NCBI GenBank assembly: GCA_965116475.1
Contig: OZ220691.1
Coordinates: 2,528,001-2,592,000 of the forward strand
Origin: Gemmatimonadota bacterium
Lineage (GTDB): Bacteria > Gemmatimonadota > Gemmatimonadetes > Palauibacterales > Palauibacteraceae
DNA: 64,000 nt
Reading direction: 5' to 3'
Below the pieces are notes generated by a model. It was not told where the DNA came from, ran no database searches, and saw only the letters and a list, made by a program, of their open reading frames with translations. The translations under genes were made by a program, and so were the position numbers. This document shows positions 1,981-58,805 of the stretch, piece by piece (position 1 is the first letter of the stretch; every line of letters begins with the position of its first letter).

Positions 1981-4900
1981 ATGTTGTTTCACTTGTCAGG
2001 GCGGCGGAGTCGCGCGAGCGCGCTGACCGCTGCAGCAGTGAGCGCCTGGCTCTTTATCGGCGCGGCCCCGCTGCTCGCTCAGGGAGCGGTGTCGGGGACG
2101 GTGACCGATGCGGAGTCGCTGGCCCCGGTGGCCGGCGCGCAGGTGTTTGTTGCGGGAACGGTGATCGGTACGCTGTCGGGCCCGGAGGGCACGTACCGGT
2201 TGGAAGGGGTGCCGGCGGGCGAACAGACCGTGACGGTCCGCCTGATCGGCTACCACGAGCTGTCGCAGACCGTGACGGTAACGTCCGGTCAGGTGGCGAC
2301 GTCGGATTTCTCCGTGGAGCAGACGGCCCTTCGCCTCCAGGACATCGTCGTGACGGGGGTGGTGGGCGAGACGCCGCAGGTGAAGCTCCCGTTCACGGTG
2401 GAGCGGCTGTCGGCGCAGGACCTGCCGGTTCCGTCGGCGGACGCCTCCTCGCTGCTGGCGGGTAAGGCGGCCGGCGTATCGGTCATATCCAACTCCGGCC
2501 AGCCCGGCCAGGAGTCATCGATTACGCTGCGCGGTCCGACCTCGATCAACGCGTCCGGCCGGAGCCAGTCGCCGCTGATCGTGATCGATGGCGTGATCCA
2601 GGCCGATGGCGCATCGCTTTCGGACGTGGGCGCGCTGGACATCGACCACGTGGAGATCGTGAAGGGTGCGGCGGCGGCGTCGCTGTACGGTTCGCGGGCG
2701 CAGAACGGCGTGATCGAGATCACGACGAAGCGCGGCACGGGCCTGCAGACGAACTCGCTGACGATCACCGGCCGCGGCGAATACGGCTTCGGCCAGCTGG
2801 TCGGCGATGTCGGTCTCGTGCGTTCGCATCCCTACGAGATGAACGCATCGGGAACGAAGTTCATCGACAGCGAAGGCAACGAAGTCGATTTCGGCGACCT
2901 CAACCGCCCCGGCTTCGGTTCCGCGCGGCTGTACAACCAGATCGCCCCGGGCGAGGCGGCGACGCCGCAGACGGCGTTCGCGAACCAGGCGTTCCCGACT
3001 GAACTGTTCGATCACATGGACACGTTCTTCGATCCCGGCGAGACCGTCGACGTCTACGGTGCGGTCACGGGCCGATTCGGCGAGTCGAGCTTCCGGGTGA
3101 GCGTCAACCAGTTCCGCGAGGCCGGCGTCGTGAGTTGTTCCGCCTGCGTCGACAACCTCGCCACGCTCAACGCGGACCGCGTTGCGCAGGGCCTCACGGC
3201 TTTCGACGTGGGGATTCCGAACGACGAGGGCTACGAGCGGCAGAACGTGCGCCTGAACGTGGACACGCGCTTCGGCGACCTGGACATCGCGGCGAGCGGC
3301 TTCTACTCGCGCTCCGACCAGGACGACAAGGCCGTGTCGACCGGCGCCTTCTCCCGGTTGACCTTCATGTCGCCTGCGCTCGATATCTCGCAGGTCGATC
3401 CGATGGACGGGTATCCGGACCTCAATGCGGATCCGCAGTCGATCGAGCCCAACCCGCTCTACCTGCTGGCCGTCAATGACAGCCGCGACGAGCGGACGCG
3501 GACGATGGGGTCCGTCGACCTCAACTTCTCGCCCGCGGCCATCGACTGGCTGACGCTCGAGGCGAACGCCTCGTTCGACCGGACCGACTTCAGCGATTAC
3601 ACGATCCGGCCCAAGAACGAGCGTACCGCGGGCGGCGGCGGCACCGGCGACTTCACGGGCGGCAGCCTCCGCGAGTTCAACTCGACCAACGAGGCGGTCA
3701 ACGCGTCGGTGACGCTCGGCGCGAGCCAGACGTTCATGGACGGCGACCTCACGGTGCGCGGTAAGGCCCGCTACCTGATCGAGGACCAGAGCTACCAGTC
3801 GAACGGTGTGTTCGGGAGCCGCTTCTCGGTGCAGGACGTGCCGAACTTCGGCGCCATCATCGGCGAGACCTCGGGGAACAACTTCACGAGCGCGGTCAAG
3901 GCGGAAGGGCTGTTCGGCATCGCGAGCGCCGACTACCGCGGCCGCTACATCATCGACGGCCTCGTTCGTCGCGACGGCTCCTCGCTGTTCGGGCCCGATG
4001 AGCGGTGGCAGACCTACTACCGCGGCTCGGTCGCCTGGCGCGTGGCGCAGGAAGATTTCTGGAACATCGACGCGATCGACGAACTGAAGCTGCGCTTCTC
4101 GCTGGGGACGGCGGGCGGGCGGCCGAACTTCGCCGCCCAGTACGAGACGTTCGGCGTCTCCGCGGGCGCGATCTTCCCGATCAACCTCGGAAACCGCGCG
4201 CTGAAGCCGGAGTTCACGTCCGAGAAGGAAGCGGGACTGAACTTCGTGTTCTTCGAGAACCTGGGTCTCGACCTCACCTACGCCTGGAACACGACGGATG
4301 ACCAGCTTCTGCAGGTTCCGCAGCCGGCGTTCGTCGGCTTCTCGAGCCAGTGGCAGAACGCGGGCGAGATCGCGGCGCAGACGTACGAGGTCTCGCTGCG
4401 CTACGCGGCGATCGACACGCAGGACATGGGCCTGCAGTTCCGGTTGAACTGGGACAAGACCCGGCAGGAGATCACGCGTCTGGACGTTCCGGACTACTCG
4501 TTCGGCAACTTCTACGTCTCCGAAGGTCGTCCGCTGGGCGAGCTGTGGGGCGAGCGGTGGGCCAGGAGCTGCGCGGACCTGGCGCCCATCGGCGTGTCGG
4601 CTTCCGACTGCAACGCCAACTTCCAGGTGAACGATGACGGTCTGCTCGTCCCGACGGGCGGCGCCGCCTTCACGGAAGGGTTCAGCAAGACGCTCTGGGG
4701 AACCCAGGTCGAGGTCGCCACGGACGACGGCAGCAACTCGTACCACTGGGGCCTGCCGGTGAAGGTTCAGGATTATTCGCCGGCCTGTGTCGCGAAGAAT
4801 CCTGGCGACTACACCGAGAAGTGCGTGCTCACCGAGTTCCTGCCGTTCGGAAACACGACGCCGGACTTCAACGCCTCGTTGGCGACGAACTTCCGGTATC

Positions 4901-54225: not shown

Positions 54226-55605
54226 ATGTGGCATGAGGACATCCTTGGCACGATCGGCGGCACGCCTCTCGTCCGCGTGAACCGCCTCGCCGCGCACCTC
54301 CCGGGCACGGTCCTCGCGAAGCTCGAGTACTTCAACCCCGGCGGCTCCGTGAAGGACCGCATCGGGATCTCGATGCTCGACGACGCCGAGGCACGGGGGG
54401 AGATCGCGCCCGGCGGCACGATCGTCGAGGGCACGAGCGGCAACACCGGCGTCGGGCTCGCGCTCGCCGCCATCGCGCGCGGCTACAAGTGCATCTTCGC
54501 GACCACGGACAAGCAGAGCCCCGAGAAGATCGCCATCCTGCGGGCGCTCGGGGCCGAGGTCATTGTCTGCCCGACCGCCGTGGACCCCGAGGATCCGCGC
54601 TCCTACTACCAGGTCTCGCGCCGGCTGGCGGAGGAGACGCCCAACTCCTTCTACATGAACCAGTACGACAACCCCGCCAACACGCTCGCCCACCTGCGGA
54701 CGACCGGCCCGGAGCTGTGGGAAGGGACCGGGGGGAGGATCACGCACCTCTTCGTCGGCTCCGGCACGGGCGGCACGATCTCGGGCTCCGCCGCCTACCT
54801 CAAGGAACGGAACCCCGAGGTCCGGATCATCGGCGTGGATCCGCATGGCTCCGTCTACTGGAAGTACTTTCACACCGGCGAGTTCGACGAAGACGAGATC
54901 CAGCCCTACGTCACCGAAGGGGTGGGAGAGGACATCCTCGCGGGCAACATGAACTTCGACATCGTCGACGACTACGTGCGCGTCACGGACCGGGAGTCGA
55001 TGCTCATGACCCGCCGTCTCGCGCGCGAGGAGGGGATGTTCCTCGGCGGTTCCTGCGGCATGGCGATGGCCGGCGCCCTGCAGTGGATGGAGGCGAACCG
55101 CGACGCGACCGACGACGACGCGGTCCTCGTCGTGGTCATGCCCGACGGCGGCTATCGCGCGCTCGGAAAGGTCTACAACGACGTCTGGATGCAGGAGCAC
55201 GGCTTCCTCGACGAGGGCGAAACCCTCACCGCGGGAGCGCTCGCCACGCGCCGGTCGACGGAGAGGCCGCTGGTGTCCGCCCCGGTCGACATGTCGCTGG
55301 AGGACGCGATCGCGTCGATGCGCGAGCACGCGATTTCGCAGTTGCCGGTGATGGAGGGAGGAGACGTCGTTGGCAGCCTCATCGAGCAGAACATCCTCCG
55401 CTTCCTCATGGGAGACCCCGACGCGCGGAGACGCCTCGTGCGCGACGTCATGGGCCCGCCCTTCCCGGTCGTGGAGGCCTCGAGCCCCGTGCACGCGTTC
55501 GCGAACGCGCTCAGCGGAGACCAGCCCGCCGTGCTCGTGCGGCGAGAAGACGGCACGCTCGCCATCCTCACCCGCTCCGACCTGATCTCCGCCCTCGGCG
55601 CGTAG
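54226..55605 (+). CDS. Cystathionine beta-synthase-like PLP enzyme with C-terminal CBS domains
   Basis: NPGGSVKDR, TSGNTG, GSGTGGT, EGVGED, HAISQLPV, ILTRSDL. Confidence 0.9.
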   Translation: MWHEDILGTIGGTPLVRVNRLAAHLPGTVLAKLEYFNPGGSVKDRIGISMLDDAEARGEIAPGGTIVEGTSGNTGVGLALAAIARGYKCIFATTDKQSPEKIAILRALGAEVIVCPTAVDPEDPRSYYQVSRRLAEETPNSFYMNQYDNPANTLAHLRTTGPELWEGTGGRITHLFVGSGTGGTISGSAAYLKERNPEVRIIGVDPHGSVYWKYFHTGEFDEDEIQPYVTEGVGEDILAGNMNFDIVDDYVRVTDRESMLMTRRLAREEGMFLGGSCGMAMAGALQWMEANRDATDDDAVLVVVMPDGGYRALGKVYNDVWMQEHGFLDEGETLTAGALATRRSTERPLVSAPVDMSLEDAIASMREHAISQLPVMEGGDVVGSLIEQNILRFLMGDPDARRRLVRDVMGPPFPVVEASSPVHAFANALSGDQPAVLVRREDGTLAILTRSDLISALGA

Positions 55606-55614
55606 AAGCGACGG

Positions 55615-55779
55615 ATGAGCAAGCCGGAAGGGACCGATGAGCGTATGCCGAAGAAGCTCCCCATCGAGGAGTGGATCAAGAAAGTCCGCGCGGACAAAGC
55701 CCGGGCTCGCAAGGAGGGGTCAAAGAACCGCGTGACCACCGAGAGCATCCTGCGAGCGAGAGACGCCGACCGGAAGTAA
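55615..55779 (+). CDS. Small basic protein (54 aa) resembling the C-terminal half of a FitA/VapB-type antitoxin
   Basis: Manual translation MSKPEGTDERMPKKLPIEEWIKKVRADKARARKEGSKNRVTTESILRARDADRK; below the ORF-track cutoff; family resemblance is from memory. Confidence 0.5.
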   Translation: MSKPEGTDERMPKKLPIEEWIKKVRADKARARKEGSKNRVTTESILRARDADRK

Positions 55780-55785
55780 CGGTCG

Positions 55786-56529
55786 TCAGCCTACCACGGG
55801 TTGGTAGTCACTCCCGTTCATCGGCTCGTAGCGGTCCCACCGGCCTTGCATCTCGATCAGAACGCGCTGCTTTGACGGTGCGGGTTGCGGATTCATCCTT
55901 ACCACCCGTGCCGAGTATCGGTCAGGCACTTCCGCCATGGCCATCGCCAGGTCGGAGGCCAGATAACGAGGCGCCCAACCGATCATGAAGTAGTCCTCAG
56001 TCTGGATTTGGACGGCGAACCCGGTGACTGGATTGGTGAGCTCCACCGTGACGTACAGCGCTTCTCCCGGTGTCAGGCGCTCGAGACGCTCCTTGGCCGC
56101 AGAATTGACGTGCCGCCAACCGTGGAGGAAAAACCGGCACGAAAACGATCCGTCCGCATCTCTCTCGATCTTCGGGAAGACCTCGTAGGCATCTGTCTGG
56201 CGGTAACCACCGTTCGCCGCCAGGATTTCAATCGGGTCGGCCTTATGACCCAGGTCCAGATTGCGAAGGTAGTCCCCCAGGTCCGGCCTGCCGGGGTTGA
56301 TCACTCGGTTCTGAAACAGCGGAAACAGGCTCGACGCCTTGTAATCCTCCTCCAGCTCCGGGAACTCGACGAGCAGCGGAAACCCTGCTTCGGCCTGGGC
56401 TCGCCTGGCGCCGCCGGTGTAGCGGAACCGGTACTCCGGTTGAGATACGTCCGCATCGAGACGGCCGACGGGGAACCACTGCCGCCTATCCTCTTCCTGC
56501 CACGCCAGGAACAGAGTTTTCGGAGTCAT
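55786..56529 (-). CDS. HipS/HipA-N-like domain fused to a HIRAN domain
   Basis: LFLAWQ..PVGRL..YRFRY..LFPLFQNRV..RPD..GGYRQTD; then FFLHGWRH, LTPGEAL, ELTNP, IGWAPRYL (HIRAN-like); ATGA overlap with the kinase. Confidence 0.8.
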   Translation of the reverse strand: MTPKTLFLAWQEEDRRQWFPVGRLDADVSQPEYRFRYTGGARRAQAEAGFPLLVEFPELEEDYKASSLFPLFQNRVINPGRPDLGDYLRNLDLGHKADPIEILAANGGYRQTDAYEVFPKIERDADGSFSCRFFLHGWRHVNSAAKERLERLTPGEALYVTVELTNPVTGFAVQIQTEDYFMIGWAPRYLASDLAMAMAEVPDRYSARVVRMNPQPAPSKQRVLIEMQGRWDRYEPMNGSDYQPVVG

Positions 56530-57416
56530 CGAGCGACCTCCCGTAGCTGGTCTCGATTGTAGCAGATCAGTTCGACGACAAACGCCCGTGCGGTATCCGA
56601 CATCCAATCAACCGGCACGCGACGCACAAGCTCCGCTACGAGGGAATCAGTCAACGCGTCCACACGTTCCAAGATACTGCGGAAATAGGGCCCGTGCCTT
56701 TCAGCCGCCTCCCGCACCAGCGTCAGGGGACTCGGACCGTACCGCGCATCCCCCGACCAGTGGATTCCTCCACGGCCCCTCTCCGAATACCAACCCACCC
56801 TCTTCTCGTTCAACAGGAGGGTTCGCCTTTCGTCACGAAGCTCCCTCCCAAGCGAGGAGGCGTGATCGAACGACGGGGCAAGCCCACCTTTCCAATTCTC
56901 TCCAACGCGACGCCGCAGGAAGCCCCAGTTCTCGTGATGGCGATCGGTGTTCCCAATCACCGCGTCCAACACCAGATACCCCGCAAACGCCGTCCGGTTT
57001 GTTTCGGCTGCGGCTCGCTCCCGAAAGATCCGGTCGAATGATGCCCAGATGTTGCTGAACGAATGGTCCGATTGACCGAACCTGGCTGTTCGATCGTAGC
57101 CCTCCACCGTCCGCGCAAGGACCTGGTTTCCGTGAACCAGCTCGGTGCTTCCCGGAGCGAAGGACTCGGAGATCGACCCACGTTCGCTCTCAAACTCGGC
57201 CAGTTCGGTTCTCGCGTGCCGGATGCCCAGAGCTCGCGCGATTTCGGCCGCAATCTTCTCCGCCCAATGCTGACCGGTGTTGGGTTGGGGATACTTGAAG
57301 AGCCATGCTGGTCCGTGACCCTCGGCTTTTCGATACCAGAACTTCCGCTTGGTGCCCATGTCTTCCGGTCCACGCCATTCCGGATCCACCACGACAACGG
57401 GATAGTTCTCAAGCAC
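56526..57416 (-). CDS. HipA-like Ser/Thr kinase (kinase core only)
   Basis: GTKRKFW, WLFK, WAEKIA, LDAVIGNTDRHHENWG, LAPSFDH. Confidence 0.88.
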   Translation of the reverse strand: MLENYPVVVVDPEWRGPEDMGTKRKFWYRKAEGHGPAWLFKYPQPNTGQHWAEKIAAEIARALGIRHARTELAEFESERGSISESFAPGSTELVHGNQVLARTVEGYDRTARFGQSDHSFSNIWASFDRIFRERAAAETNRTAFAGYLVLDAVIGNTDRHHENWGFLRRRVGENWKGGLAPSFDHASSLGRELRDERRTLLLNEKRVGWYSERGRGGIHWSGDARYGPSPLTLVREAAERHGPYFRSILERVDALTDSLVAELVRRVPVDWMSDTARAFVVELICYNRDQLREVAR

Positions 57417-57434
57417 GATTGACGCCGGCGCGAA

Positions 57435-57905
57435 CTAGCCTTCGCCGGGGAGGGAGTAGAGGTGGGCGGTGACGAGGGCGGCGACGAGCAGGAGGAGGGC
57501 GACGAGCCAGAGTTGCCCGGCGGCGAACACGGCGGAGATGAGGATCGCGCTCCACAGGAAGATCGTTGCGCCGCGCCGCACGCGCGTGGAGATCACGCCG
57601 CGCTCCCGGTAGGCGGCGAGGTAGCGGCCGAAGAGGCGGTTCTCGTACAGCCAGCGCTCGGCACGAGGCGAGCTGCGCGCGAAGCACCACGCGGCGAGCA
57701 GGAGGAAACAGGTCGTGGGCCAGAGCGGCACCACGATGCCGATGACGCCGGCGCTCACGCTCAGGCTTCCCACGCCCAGGAAGACGGCTCGTCGCACCGG
57801 GCCGGGCAGTGAACGCGCCACGCGCTCCGCGGCCTCGTGATCGACGGGGCAGCGCGCGGACGCCGACCGGGGCGCGGCTTGGCCGTGGGGCGAGCTATGG
57901 GGCAT
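57435..57905 (-). CDS. ybaN: YbaN/DUF454 inner-membrane protein
   Basis: GVIGIVVPLWPTTCFLLLAAWCFARSS..WL..NRLFG. Confidence 0.88.
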   Translation of the reverse strand: MPHSSPHGQAAPRSASARCPVDHEAAERVARSLPGPVRRAVFLGVGSLSVSAGVIGIVVPLWPTTCFLLLAAWCFARSSPRAERWLYENRLFGRYLAAYRERGVISTRVRRGATIFLWSAILISAVFAAGQLWLVALLLLVAALVTAHLYSLPGEG

Positions 57906-57954
57906 GTGTTCGGCGAACTCCGTCTGGTCCGGGAATCTTCCGACCGGGGGATCA

Positions 57955-58028
57955 TGCGCCCGGGAGGACTCGAACCCCCAGCCTTCTGATCCGAAGTCAG
58001 ACGCTCTGTCCAATTGAGCTACGGGCGC
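57955..58028 (-). tRNA. tRNA-Arg(TCG), CCA not encoded
   Basis: GCGCCCG acceptor stem, AGCTCAATTGGACAGAGC D arm, TCTGA-CTTCGGA-TCAGA anticodon arm, GGGGG-TTCGAGT-CCTCC T arm. Confidence 0.96.
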
Positions 58029-58046
58029 GGGTGGCGCGCGCCGAAA

Positions 58047-58075
58047 ACGGTAGAACCGGCCCGCGTCCGATGCAA
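58047..58075 (-). promoter_or_regulatory. Sigma70-type promoter for the tRNA
   Basis: On the minus strand TTGCAT, 17-nt spacer, TACCGT. Confidence 0.55.
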
Positions 58076-58205
58076 CTCCGATCCGCCGTTTCTCGCCGGA
58101 ACGCCCGTGTGGGAGCCGACACCCCGGCGCTCCCGGTCGTTCGCGGATTTCCGAGACACGGCGCTAGATTCGGGGACGCCCAACCACGTCACCCGGAGCG
58201 GAACG

Positions 58206-58805
58206 ATGCGACGACTGCGTACACTCTTCCTCCTCGGCGCGCTGGCCGCCGGACCCCTGGCGCTAGCGGCGCCCGCCCCCTCCCTTGCCCAGAGCCGCGC
58301 GAACGTGGCCATGGCGGAGAGCTGGCCCGACGCCGATCCCGGCGACGTGGAGTCGGTCGACAGCATCCTGACCGCGCTCTACGACGTCATCTCGGGCCCG
58401 GCCGGACAGGCGCGCGACTGGGACCGCTTCCGCTCCCTGTTCATCCCGGAGGCCCGGCTCATTCCCACGGGGCGGTCCCCGGAGGGCGAGCACGGCTACC
58501 AGGTGTGGAGCCCGGGAGAATACGCCGAACAGGCGGGCGGCTACCTCGAGCAGAACGGGTTCTTCGAGCGGGAGATCGCCCGCAGCGAGGAGCGCTTCGG
58601 CCCCGTCGTCCACGCCTTCTCGACCTACGACTCGAAGCGCACCGCAGACGACCCCGAGCCGTTCGCGCGCGGCATCAACTCCATCCAGCTCATGCACGAC
58701 GGCGACCGCTGGTACGTCGTCACGATCTACTGGGCCGCGGAACGGCCGGATCTGCCGATTCCGGGACAGTATCTGCCCTCCAGGAACGGAGGAGGCGCCC
58801 CGTGA
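58206..58805 (+). CDS. Secreted hypothetical protein, NTF2-like fold candidate
   Basis: Signal peptide; ALYDVISGPAG..RDWDRFRSLF, FFERE, RGINSIQL. Confidence 0.75.
   Translation: MRRLRTLFLLGALAAGPLALAAPAPSLAQSRANVAMAESWPDADPGDVESVDSILTALYDVISGPAGQARDWDRFRSLFIPEARLIPTGRSPEGEHGYQVWSPGEYAEQAGGYLEQNGFFEREIARSEERFGPVVHAFSTYDSKRTADDPEPFARGINSIQLMHDGDRWYVVTIYWAAERPDLPIPGQYLPSRNGGGAP

Follow-up and report, generated by a model that had tools for sequence, protein, structure and literature searches.

A two-gene cassette in a 64,000-nucleotide stretch of a Gemmatimonadota genome (Palauibacteraceae; GenBank assembly GCA_965116475.1, contig OZ220691.1, positions 2,528,001 to 2,592,000 of the forward strand), referred to here as the window, is identified by sequence and profile comparison as an intact module of the hipIN type. 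It encodes a HipA-family kinase, HipI, and a partner, HipN, in which a HipS-like domain is followed by a HIRAN domain. The module is already catalogued as PDC-M03, which PADLOC lists as a phage-defence candidate, that is, as a prediction (PMC13245101). What is new is the swap of the cassette into a toxin-antitoxin hotspot, the loss of the kinase and retention of HipN in related loci, a predicted contact of both HipN domains with the kinase, and an altered HIRAN pocket. The reading preferred here, with a probability of about 0.55, is that HipI would act as a toxin which HipN restrains and which a cue received through the HIRAN domain releases.

The kinase, its partner and the predicted complex

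The cassette and the islet that carries it consist of the following features, given in coordinates of the window:

56526..57416, minus strand: hipI-type kinase gene; GTG start, 296 residues; HipA-family core kinase without N-subdomain-1
55786..56529, minus strand: hipN-type partner gene; ATG at 56529, stop at 55786-55788, 247 residues
56526..56529, minus strand: ATGA overlap of the kinase TGA and the partner ATG, read from the sequence; translational coupling
55788..57436, no strand: inserted islet of lower guanine-plus-cytosine (GC) content, delimited by the GC profile and by homology breaks against 11 same-genus loci

A sequence-only reading of this DNA had singled out an ATGA-coupled gene pair, richer in A/T than its surroundings and inserted between cbs and ybaN about 0.5 kb from a tRNA, and these observations were confirmed. 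Both open reading frames (ORFs) and their overlap are in place, the GC fraction is 0.60-0.63 over 55600-57400 against 0.68-0.75 on either flank, homology to relatives breaks at the islet borders, and 539 nucleotides separate the tRNA-Arg from the kinase start. The islet (1.65 kb) holds only hipI, hipN and the 18 nucleotides that precede the kinase start. No helix-turn-helix (HTH) gene was found within it, either in the ORF list or with Pfam, in agreement with the earlier remark that a HipB gene is missing. The source genome has one copy of hipI and one of hipN. Elsewhere in the same genome, a distant HipA-like match (G000:C1:1326566-1327045, locus L083; E-value 1.2e-5, 29% identity) lies inside a 437-residue frame that is possibly a canonical HipA.

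The kinase matches Pfam HipA_C over residues 21-191 (5.5e-13; 49.5 bits, cut-off 30.5) and the PADLOC PDC-M03A model over residues 3-294 (8.3e-78), and Pfam finds no HipA N-terminal domain in it (no match to Couple_hipA or HipA_N). Four elements do not vary across 21 homologues, namely the Gly-rich loop (M20 G21 x K23 x K25 F W), K41, the catalytic loop (D151..GNTD158RHHEN163W) and the Mg loop (D184HASSLGRE), and on these grounds the kinase looks active. The sequence-only reading was thus right that the catalytic motifs are kept and that the N-terminal subdomain is absent. Beside the Gly-rich loop stands T22, a position that is Thr in nine, Ser in nine and Gly in three of the 21 homologues; the published description of hipIN includes a Ser/Thr here as a possible autophosphorylation site (PMC8262856). 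In the AlphaFold2 (AF2) model of the kinase, with a predicted local distance difference test (pLDDT) score of 87.1, the nearest fold is CtkA over the full length (template modelling, TM, scores 0.78/0.81), followed by HipA and HipT. When the kinase family profile was searched against the sequences of the Protein Data Bank (PDB), only CtkA was matched (3.7e-8), and HipT and HipA were missed. NCBIfam gave no usable match for either the kinase or the partner.

The partner divides into a HipS-like domain (residues ~1-125) and a HIRAN domain (~129-226), as had been proposed from the sequence. Pfam HIRAN is matched over residues 129-226 (1.3e-7; 31.8 bits, cut-off 24.7) and the PADLOC PDC-M03B model over residues 3-245 (1.3e-78), so that the comparison with PADLOC returned PDC-M03 models for both proteins at about 1e-78. 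At the N-terminus, Couple_hipA stays below threshold (0.078), and the HipS signal is weak by sequence alone. An AF2 model of the partner, made with 90 diverse homologues (pLDDT 96.4, predicted TM score 0.92), was compared with solved structures using Foldseek. Its N-terminal domain matched the HipS chains 7vkb_B, 8ezr_A and 7ab3_E (target TM 0.72-0.77), while its C-terminal domain matched the bacterial HIRAN protein 3k2y_B (E-value 3.4e-5, target TM 0.77) and the HIRAN domain of HLTF (4s0n_D, 4.2e-4; 4xzg was also matched). Searches of PDB sequences with the partner or with a close-clade profile gave no match, and a wider partner-family profile gave weak HIRAN matches.

Within the HIRAN domain, residues N213, P218 and R222 are kept in at least 90% of the 90 diverse members. 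The family-consensus motif NPaD falls, in a profile alignment, on the NPYD motif of HLTF, whose HIRAN domain has an OB-like fold that binds 3' ends. HLTF uses Asp94 to recognise the 3'-OH and pinches the last bases with Tyr72/Tyr93 (PMC5773155). The fold is the same in the window, but its motif reads N166-P167-V168-T169 (~56023-56034), in which the equivalents of Tyr93 and Asp94 are both replaced. Of the 90 diverse members, 50 have Asp at position 169, 16 have Thr and eight have Asn; the motif of the close clade is NP[AV]T, as opposed to NPxD in the wider family and in HLTF.

Prediction of the complex, run with both alignments, gave interaction prediction scores from aligned errors (ipSAE) of 0.84, 0.01 and 0.79. 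The median of 0.79 compares with 0.01 for the best control, so the complex prediction suggested by the sequence-only reading came out in favour of an association. The pass mark applied to the model is reached by 116 of 157 solved complexes and by 2 of 215 mismatched pairs. The runs share at least 46% of their contacts, and the partner has a pLDDT of at least 84. On the kinase side, the predicted interface takes in residues 12, 14-24 (the Gly-rich loop), 26-27, 37 and 39, and further residues 85-99, 101-102, 108-110, 130 and 162-175. On the HipN side it takes in residues 12-13, 49-57, 65-83 (a conserved LFPLFxNR stretch), 87 and 106-114, together with R139 and the conserved loop 215-221 of the HIRAN domain. 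The model supports binding of HipN to the kinase and places the HipS-like domain over the Gly-rich ATP loop. Because HipS-HipT complexes have already been solved, its passing score may in part come from likeness to them.

Several known systems resemble this pair to different degrees. The closest is hipIN, described by Gerdes, Baerentsen and Brodersen (mBio 2021; PMC8262856) within clade XI of the Hip tree and made up of HipI, a core kinase without N-subdomain-1, and HipN, a putative antitoxin. The two share a core kinase of the same size (~279-321 residues) with an N-terminal Gly-rich loop and an adjacent Ser/Thr, a downstream and often 4-nucleotide-overlapping gene for a HipS-like plus HIRAN protein (~230-255 residues), and no HTH gene. 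Table S1 of that paper holds 41 hipIN rows, in which many pairs overlap by 4-11 nucleotides and which include enterobacterial and vibrio pairs (rows 1140-1157); its cyanobacterial and gammaproteobacterial rows are, by eye, collinear with the window proteins. Unlike the present case, the hipIN rows of this table include no Gemmatimonadota entry ('gemmatimon' occurs 0 times), and the window belongs to a sub-clade that has Thr, not Asp, in the HIRAN NPxD motif. For PDC-M03, both proteins match the A and B models over their full length and the genes are adjacent, with no structural difference.

More distant relatives differ in gene order and domain make-up. In HipBST of E. coli O127 and HipS-HipT of Legionella (7ab3, 7vkb, 8ezr), the kinase likewise has no N-subdomain-1, and a HipS-type protein provides this part in trans and neutralises the kinase; the kinase model resembles HipT (query TM 0.61-0.64), and the predicted interface takes in the Gly-rich loop. 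However, HipBST encodes HipB, an HTH protein, in a gene of its own and an unfused HipS of ~100 residues upstream of the kinase, whereas the window lacks HipB, places the kinase gene first, and encodes downstream a HipS-like domain fused to HIRAN. Canonical HipBA has a ~440-residue kinase with N-subdomain-1 and an upstream HipB, neither of which is found with the 296-residue kinase of the window. HipL kinases contain the same three domains in the same order, as described in the 2021 survey (PMC8262856), but fused, where the window has two overlapping genes. CtkA (JHP0940, Helicobacter pylori; 3akj, 3akk, 3akl), the nearest solved kinase by sequence as well as by fold, is 16-18% identical.

Kinase loss and HipN retention in related loci

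Related loci were studied as the best 80 of 500 confirmed ones (one genome per species, 62-92% identity), which is not a random sample. A full-length hipN ORF is present in 78 of the 80, the exceptions being L022 (46 residues) and L066 (215 residues). Two loci end at a contig end, and in the 78 where the state of the kinase can be assessed it is intact in 44, broken in 21 and undetectable in 13. The broken kinases have in-frame stops (L007, L020, L037, L045), are spread over two frames (L003, L068, L070) or, in the other 14, have large deletions or truncations; assembly errors could account for some of the single stops and frameshifts, but never for the deletions. Six loci (L016, L019, L035, L053, L075 and L076) were counted as intact, with at least 282 kinase residues in one stop-free frame and an unbroken upstream ORF of 296-578 residues.

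The ATGA junction is common to most related loci and often persists where the kinase is gone. In L008, L024, L039 and L006, for example, the junction is accompanied by a short 3' stub of the kinase gene, with the remaining kinase deleted. Such a stub may be retained for signals needed in hipN expression. The kinase profile found no match in any of ten genomes that belong to kinase-absent loci (positive control, 5/5). A different toxin upstream of the orphan hipN genes was also considered and rejected, as the upstream ORFs there are unrelated neighbours (a Type III restriction enzyme, ThsB, NYN, DUF7002, cupin and NHL proteins). Similarly, neighbour clustering of the 80 loci gave no third conserved gene, such as a diDNase gene, and apart from hipI and hipN only shadow ORFs within these two genes recur widely. 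In Gram-positives, HipA and HIRAN genes adjoin diDNase genes, a link that a 2025 paper calls open (PMC11706625).

Kinase state was mapped onto a HipN tree of 80 rows, from which L022 was omitted as too short and in which L004 and L034 carry no state. The division into intact and dead kinases needs 21 changes, of which at least 13 are forced by well-supported branches. As reconstructed on this tree, the kinase is shown to have been lost many times independently.

The HipN sequences that remain are well preserved at conserved positions. In the 44 paired HipN proteins 55 columns are invariant; orphans keep 99.3% of these residues, compared with 99.1% in a leave-one-out comparison among the paired proteins. 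In two pairs of orphan sisters with a shared deletion junction (L024/L039 and L009/L015), 43 amino-acid positions differ, all of them outside the invariant columns. Counted over three sister pairs, the differences number 68, again with none in the invariant columns, where 15.1 would be expected if changes were even (P 3.6e-8, a value that is overstated because sites differ in mutability).

The same asymmetry was seen in a sample of 400 other genomes of the phylum, which partly overlaps the 80 loci and hence is not independent of them. Kinase matches occur in 11 of the 400, all within the 13 genomes that bear HipN, and only four of the 11 kinases are full-length without stops (G203, G227, G292 and G368; one matches positions 2-253). 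A kinase without HipN was found in none of these genomes.

Site history, neighbours and distribution

The cassette lies between conserved flanks, of which the following features are relevant here:

54226..55605, plus strand: cbs-type gene for a PLP-dependent enzyme with CBS domains, conserved left flank of the hotspot (Pfam PALP 1.4e-79, CBS 6.6e-15)
55615..55779, plus strand: 54-residue remnant ORF, C-terminal part of a FitA-like ribbon-helix-helix (RHH) antitoxin; aligns to relatives over 55701-55787
57435..57905, minus strand: ybaN-type gene for a DUF454 membrane protein (Pfam DUF454 3.9e-34)
57955..58028, minus strand: tRNA-Arg (anticodon TCG), upstream of ybaN (ARAGORN)

The islet is a real insertion. 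In the comparison with the 11 same-genus loci, homology ends at ~55788-55791, at the hipN stop, and resumes at 57435-57437, at the ybaN stop. The cbs and ybaN flanks are conserved, with the cbs flank present in 38 of the 41 genomes searched, its own included. Eight of the 11 loci (L085, L087-L091, L093 and L095) have homology to the remnant antitoxin between cbs and ybaN, and the five whose sequence was read (L085, L087, L089, L090 and L091) carry a plus-strand antitoxin-toxin pair at this site. In L087, for instance, positions 2887-3575 encode a 78-residue FitA-like RHH protein (4.2e-12) and a PIN-domain protein (8e-13). In the islet region of the window, the remnant at 55615-55779 is the sole further ORF besides the pair; it has lost the DNA-binding part and has no Pfam match.

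Other relatives show different contents at the same place. L086 (genome G022) has a hipIN cassette at this site that runs to the contig end, L092 has the remnant followed by only 9 bp, and in L094 cbs is joined straight to ybaN. Because homology breaks at the stop codons of hipN and ybaN, the hipIN cassette can be seen to replace the PIN gene exactly, in the opposite orientation. Since relatives carry varied cargo there, the gap between cbs and ybaN is a small hotspot for toxin-antitoxin and defence cargo. L001, the closest hipIN relative (partner 92% identity), has kept the FitA/PIN pair between cbs and hipN. Between its PIN gene and hipN (L001:7979-9273, minus strand of the locus) stand a DUF6197 gene and a 300-residue PLD-family gene, the latter matched by DrmC models at 1.4e-14; the islet of L001 is larger because these two genes also lie in the gap.

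A scan of 55400-58400, which is blind to other promoter types, found no sigma-70-like promoter and no terminator-like site, and no repeats or att-like sites pairing the two islet borders were found. The stop of ybaN precedes the kinase start by 18 nucleotides on the same strand. Given this short gap and the lack of a sigma-70-like promoter, transcription is most simply explained by read-through from ybaN, and the cassette is probably transcribed in this way. Run X3 of a sponge metatranscriptome library holds a 1946-nucleotide contig over 55514-57460 with nine differences from the window, and this contig has a 1-nucleotide deletion within the kinase gene at 56765. A second form in that run lacks both remnant and cassette, with 55603 joined to 57431. 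The contig is not taken as a sign of expression or co-transcription because contigs from RNA libraries can stem from DNA and because only ~23 nucleotides of ybaN are covered.

Among the neighbours of the 80 related loci, the top clusters are Type I HsdS (12 loci), HsdR (11, just downstream) and an AbiLi-like ATPase (five), and a Type III enzyme and a ThsB TIR protein (Thoeris) each occur upstream in single loci. In 11-12 of the 80, including L010:9420-12653 and L078:2202-3386, hipN with or without the kinase is located between Type I specificity and restriction genes.

Relatives of the pair are widespread. Within the length range searched, the partner has 2569 relatives at 90% clustering, with 1323 clusters at 50% identity (826 at E<=1e-10), and the kinase has at least 3727 relatives. 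The 80 loci span Gemmatimonadota, Binatota, Latescibacterota, Acidobacteriota, Nitrospirota, Pseudomonadota, Verrucomicrobiota, Chloroflexota, Spirochaetota, Deinococcota, Thermodesulfobacteriota and Tectimicrobiota. Many of their titles name sponge symbionts, and sponge metagenome is the label of most DNA runs in which the stretch occurs. At closer range, a first draw had the partner in 1 of 24 same-genus and 0 of 16 neighbouring-family genomes, and a second draw had it in 2 of 18 same-genus genomes. Its 13 occurrences in the phylum sample fall in two families only (2/29 and 11/70), with 0/301 elsewhere. This patchy distribution, together with the low GC content, indicates horizontal spread. 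Most rows of the HipN tree cluster with others of their phylum; that of the window lies in a 13-row Gemmatimonadota clade with a support of 97.

Mechanism, alternatives and significance

In the preferred reading, free HipI, as a small HipA-family Ser/Thr kinase, would harm its own cell. By analogy with HipA and HipT, it probably phosphorylates a component of translation and would thereby arrest growth. HipN, made from the overlapping downstream gene, is predicted to bind the Gly-rich ATP loop of the kinase through its HipS-like domain and would in this way keep it silent. The HIRAN domain, which is also placed against the kinase in the model, is the likeliest input domain: a nucleic-acid or phage-derived cue, or one from DNA damage, would loosen HipN, and the freed kinase would then cause growth arrest or abortive infection. 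For this clade, something other than a free 3' end may serve as the cue. The comparison of sites shows that the cassette came in by horizontal transfer and took the place of the toxin gene in an older VapBC-like pair.

The sequence-only reading had put forward HIRAN sensing and kinase release as an inference, but a nearly identical hypothesis was already published by Gerdes et al. in 2021, in which HIRAN recognises phage DNA ends or replication intermediates and kinase activation leads to abortive infection (PMC8262856). As a mechanism it holds up in part. The complex model, the fact that the kinase never occurs without its partner, and some defence neighbours speak for it, whereas Thr169 and the retention of HipN without the kinase weaken the sensing step for this member.

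These and several further results weigh against the preferred reading. One of the three complex runs scored only 0.01. Among 21 close relatives, 19 have Thr and two have Ser at position 169 and none has Asp, which suggests an altered ligand pocket in the close clade and not decay. With Thr169 aligned to Asp94 of HLTF, sensing of a free 3' end is on weaker ground in this sub-clade than in the family at large. HipN is also better conserved than the kinase wherever the kinase is intact (for example, 62-72% against 44-64% identity to the window), and the pattern of substitutions in orphans indicates that HipN is under purifying selection after the kinase is lost. Neither feature is usual in a mere antitoxin. 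Since HipN is kept without the kinase, a pure 'sensor releasing kinase' account is insufficient. That the kinase never stands alone fits equally well with HipN as an obligatory subunit that supplies the N-subdomain. The asymmetry between the two genes fits both toxin restraint and a reading in which HipN is the core, and the retention of HipN favours the latter.

As to the genomic setting, the Type I, AbiLi-like, Type III and ThsB neighbours speak for a defence context, but many related loci have ordinary metabolic neighbours, and the defence-island signal is real but partial. The 80 loci come mostly from metagenome-assembled genomes and mainly from one habitat type. Finally, no experimental study of the hipIN/PDC-M03 pair was found in the full-text literature searched, which includes few subscription journals; the text on clade XI in the 2021 survey likewise reports that none of its modules had been experimentally analysed by then (PMC8262856). 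The earlier description of the pair as an uncharacterised system is correct in this experimental sense, but it does not hold for the catalogues, where the pair appears both as PDC-M03 and as hipIN.

A tentative proposal, held at well under even odds, is that HipN has a self-sufficient selected function, for example in binding nucleic-acid structures or in immunity to incoming hipI elements. The kinase would then be costly and repeatedly shed, and the change from Asp to Thr would have adapted the HIRAN pocket in this clade to some ligand that is not a free 3'-OH.

The rival that survives best is more doubtful again. It also makes HipN the core, with a job of its own such as nucleic-acid binding or anti-addiction immunity to incoming elements that carry hipI, and treats the kinase either as a dispensable, costly add-on or as a subunit that HipN completes and targets. 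It draws on a HipN that is full-length in 78 of 80 loci, compared with 34 of 78 in which the kinase is damaged or missing, on the lack of any HipI-type kinase in all ten kinase-less genomes, and on the 99.3% of invariant-column residues that orphans keep and that sister-pair differences avoid. HipN outconserves the kinase in every intact pair, and its HipS-like domain is a homologue of the N-subdomain built into HipA (PMC8262856). However, no HipS-HIRAN protein is known to have a kinase-independent activity, and no other conserved partner gene adjoins the orphan hipN genes. The predicted interface over the ATP loop is what would be expected of an inhibitor. Orphan antitoxins, moreover, persist in other toxin-antitoxin families.

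Slightly less probable, and on balance unlikely, is a purely selfish addiction module, whose kinase and antitoxin would do no more than stabilise themselves and the DNA around them. Phage defence would then play no part, and HIRAN would be regulatory or a passenger. The toxin-antitoxin hotspot, where relatives carry a FitA/PIN pair, is the kind of evidence it would account for, as are the many related loci among metabolic genes, the patchy distribution with frequent loss, and a kinase/partner asymmetry that follows the classical toxin-antitoxin pattern. Autoregulation from an own promoter is nevertheless unlikely here, because the gap is 18 nucleotides and holds no promoter-like site. The strong conservation of HIRAN (N213, P218 and R222 in at least 90% of 90 members), the recurrent placement in Type I restriction operons or beside other defence genes, and the PADLOC listing as a defence candidate also tell against it.

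A decaying, non-functional remnant in the source genome is very improbable: kinase decay is common among relatives, the RNA-library contig with its deletion at 56765 is nearly identical and the cassette has no promoter of its own, but both ORFs of the window are full-length, the ATGA coupling is intact, and the window proteins carry all residues that are invariant in the 21-relative alignments (in which the window is the first row).

In summary, restraint of a probable HipI toxin by HipN with HIRAN-cued release is the reading preferred here. HipA-family kinases are a model for persistence and toxin-antitoxin biology, and the hipIN/PDC-M03 branch, with its many partner clusters, is large. The window provides a compact, intact example with a clear history, namely a cassette swapped into a toxin-antitoxin hotspot. 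Three points add to what was hypothesised in print: no kinase was seen without HipN, although HipN is often kept and conserved without the kinase; the HipS-like domain and the conserved HIRAN loop are both predicted to lie on the kinase; and a large sub-clade lacks the HLTF-type Asp that reads the 3'-OH. Together, these points guide the first choice of mutants and ligands.

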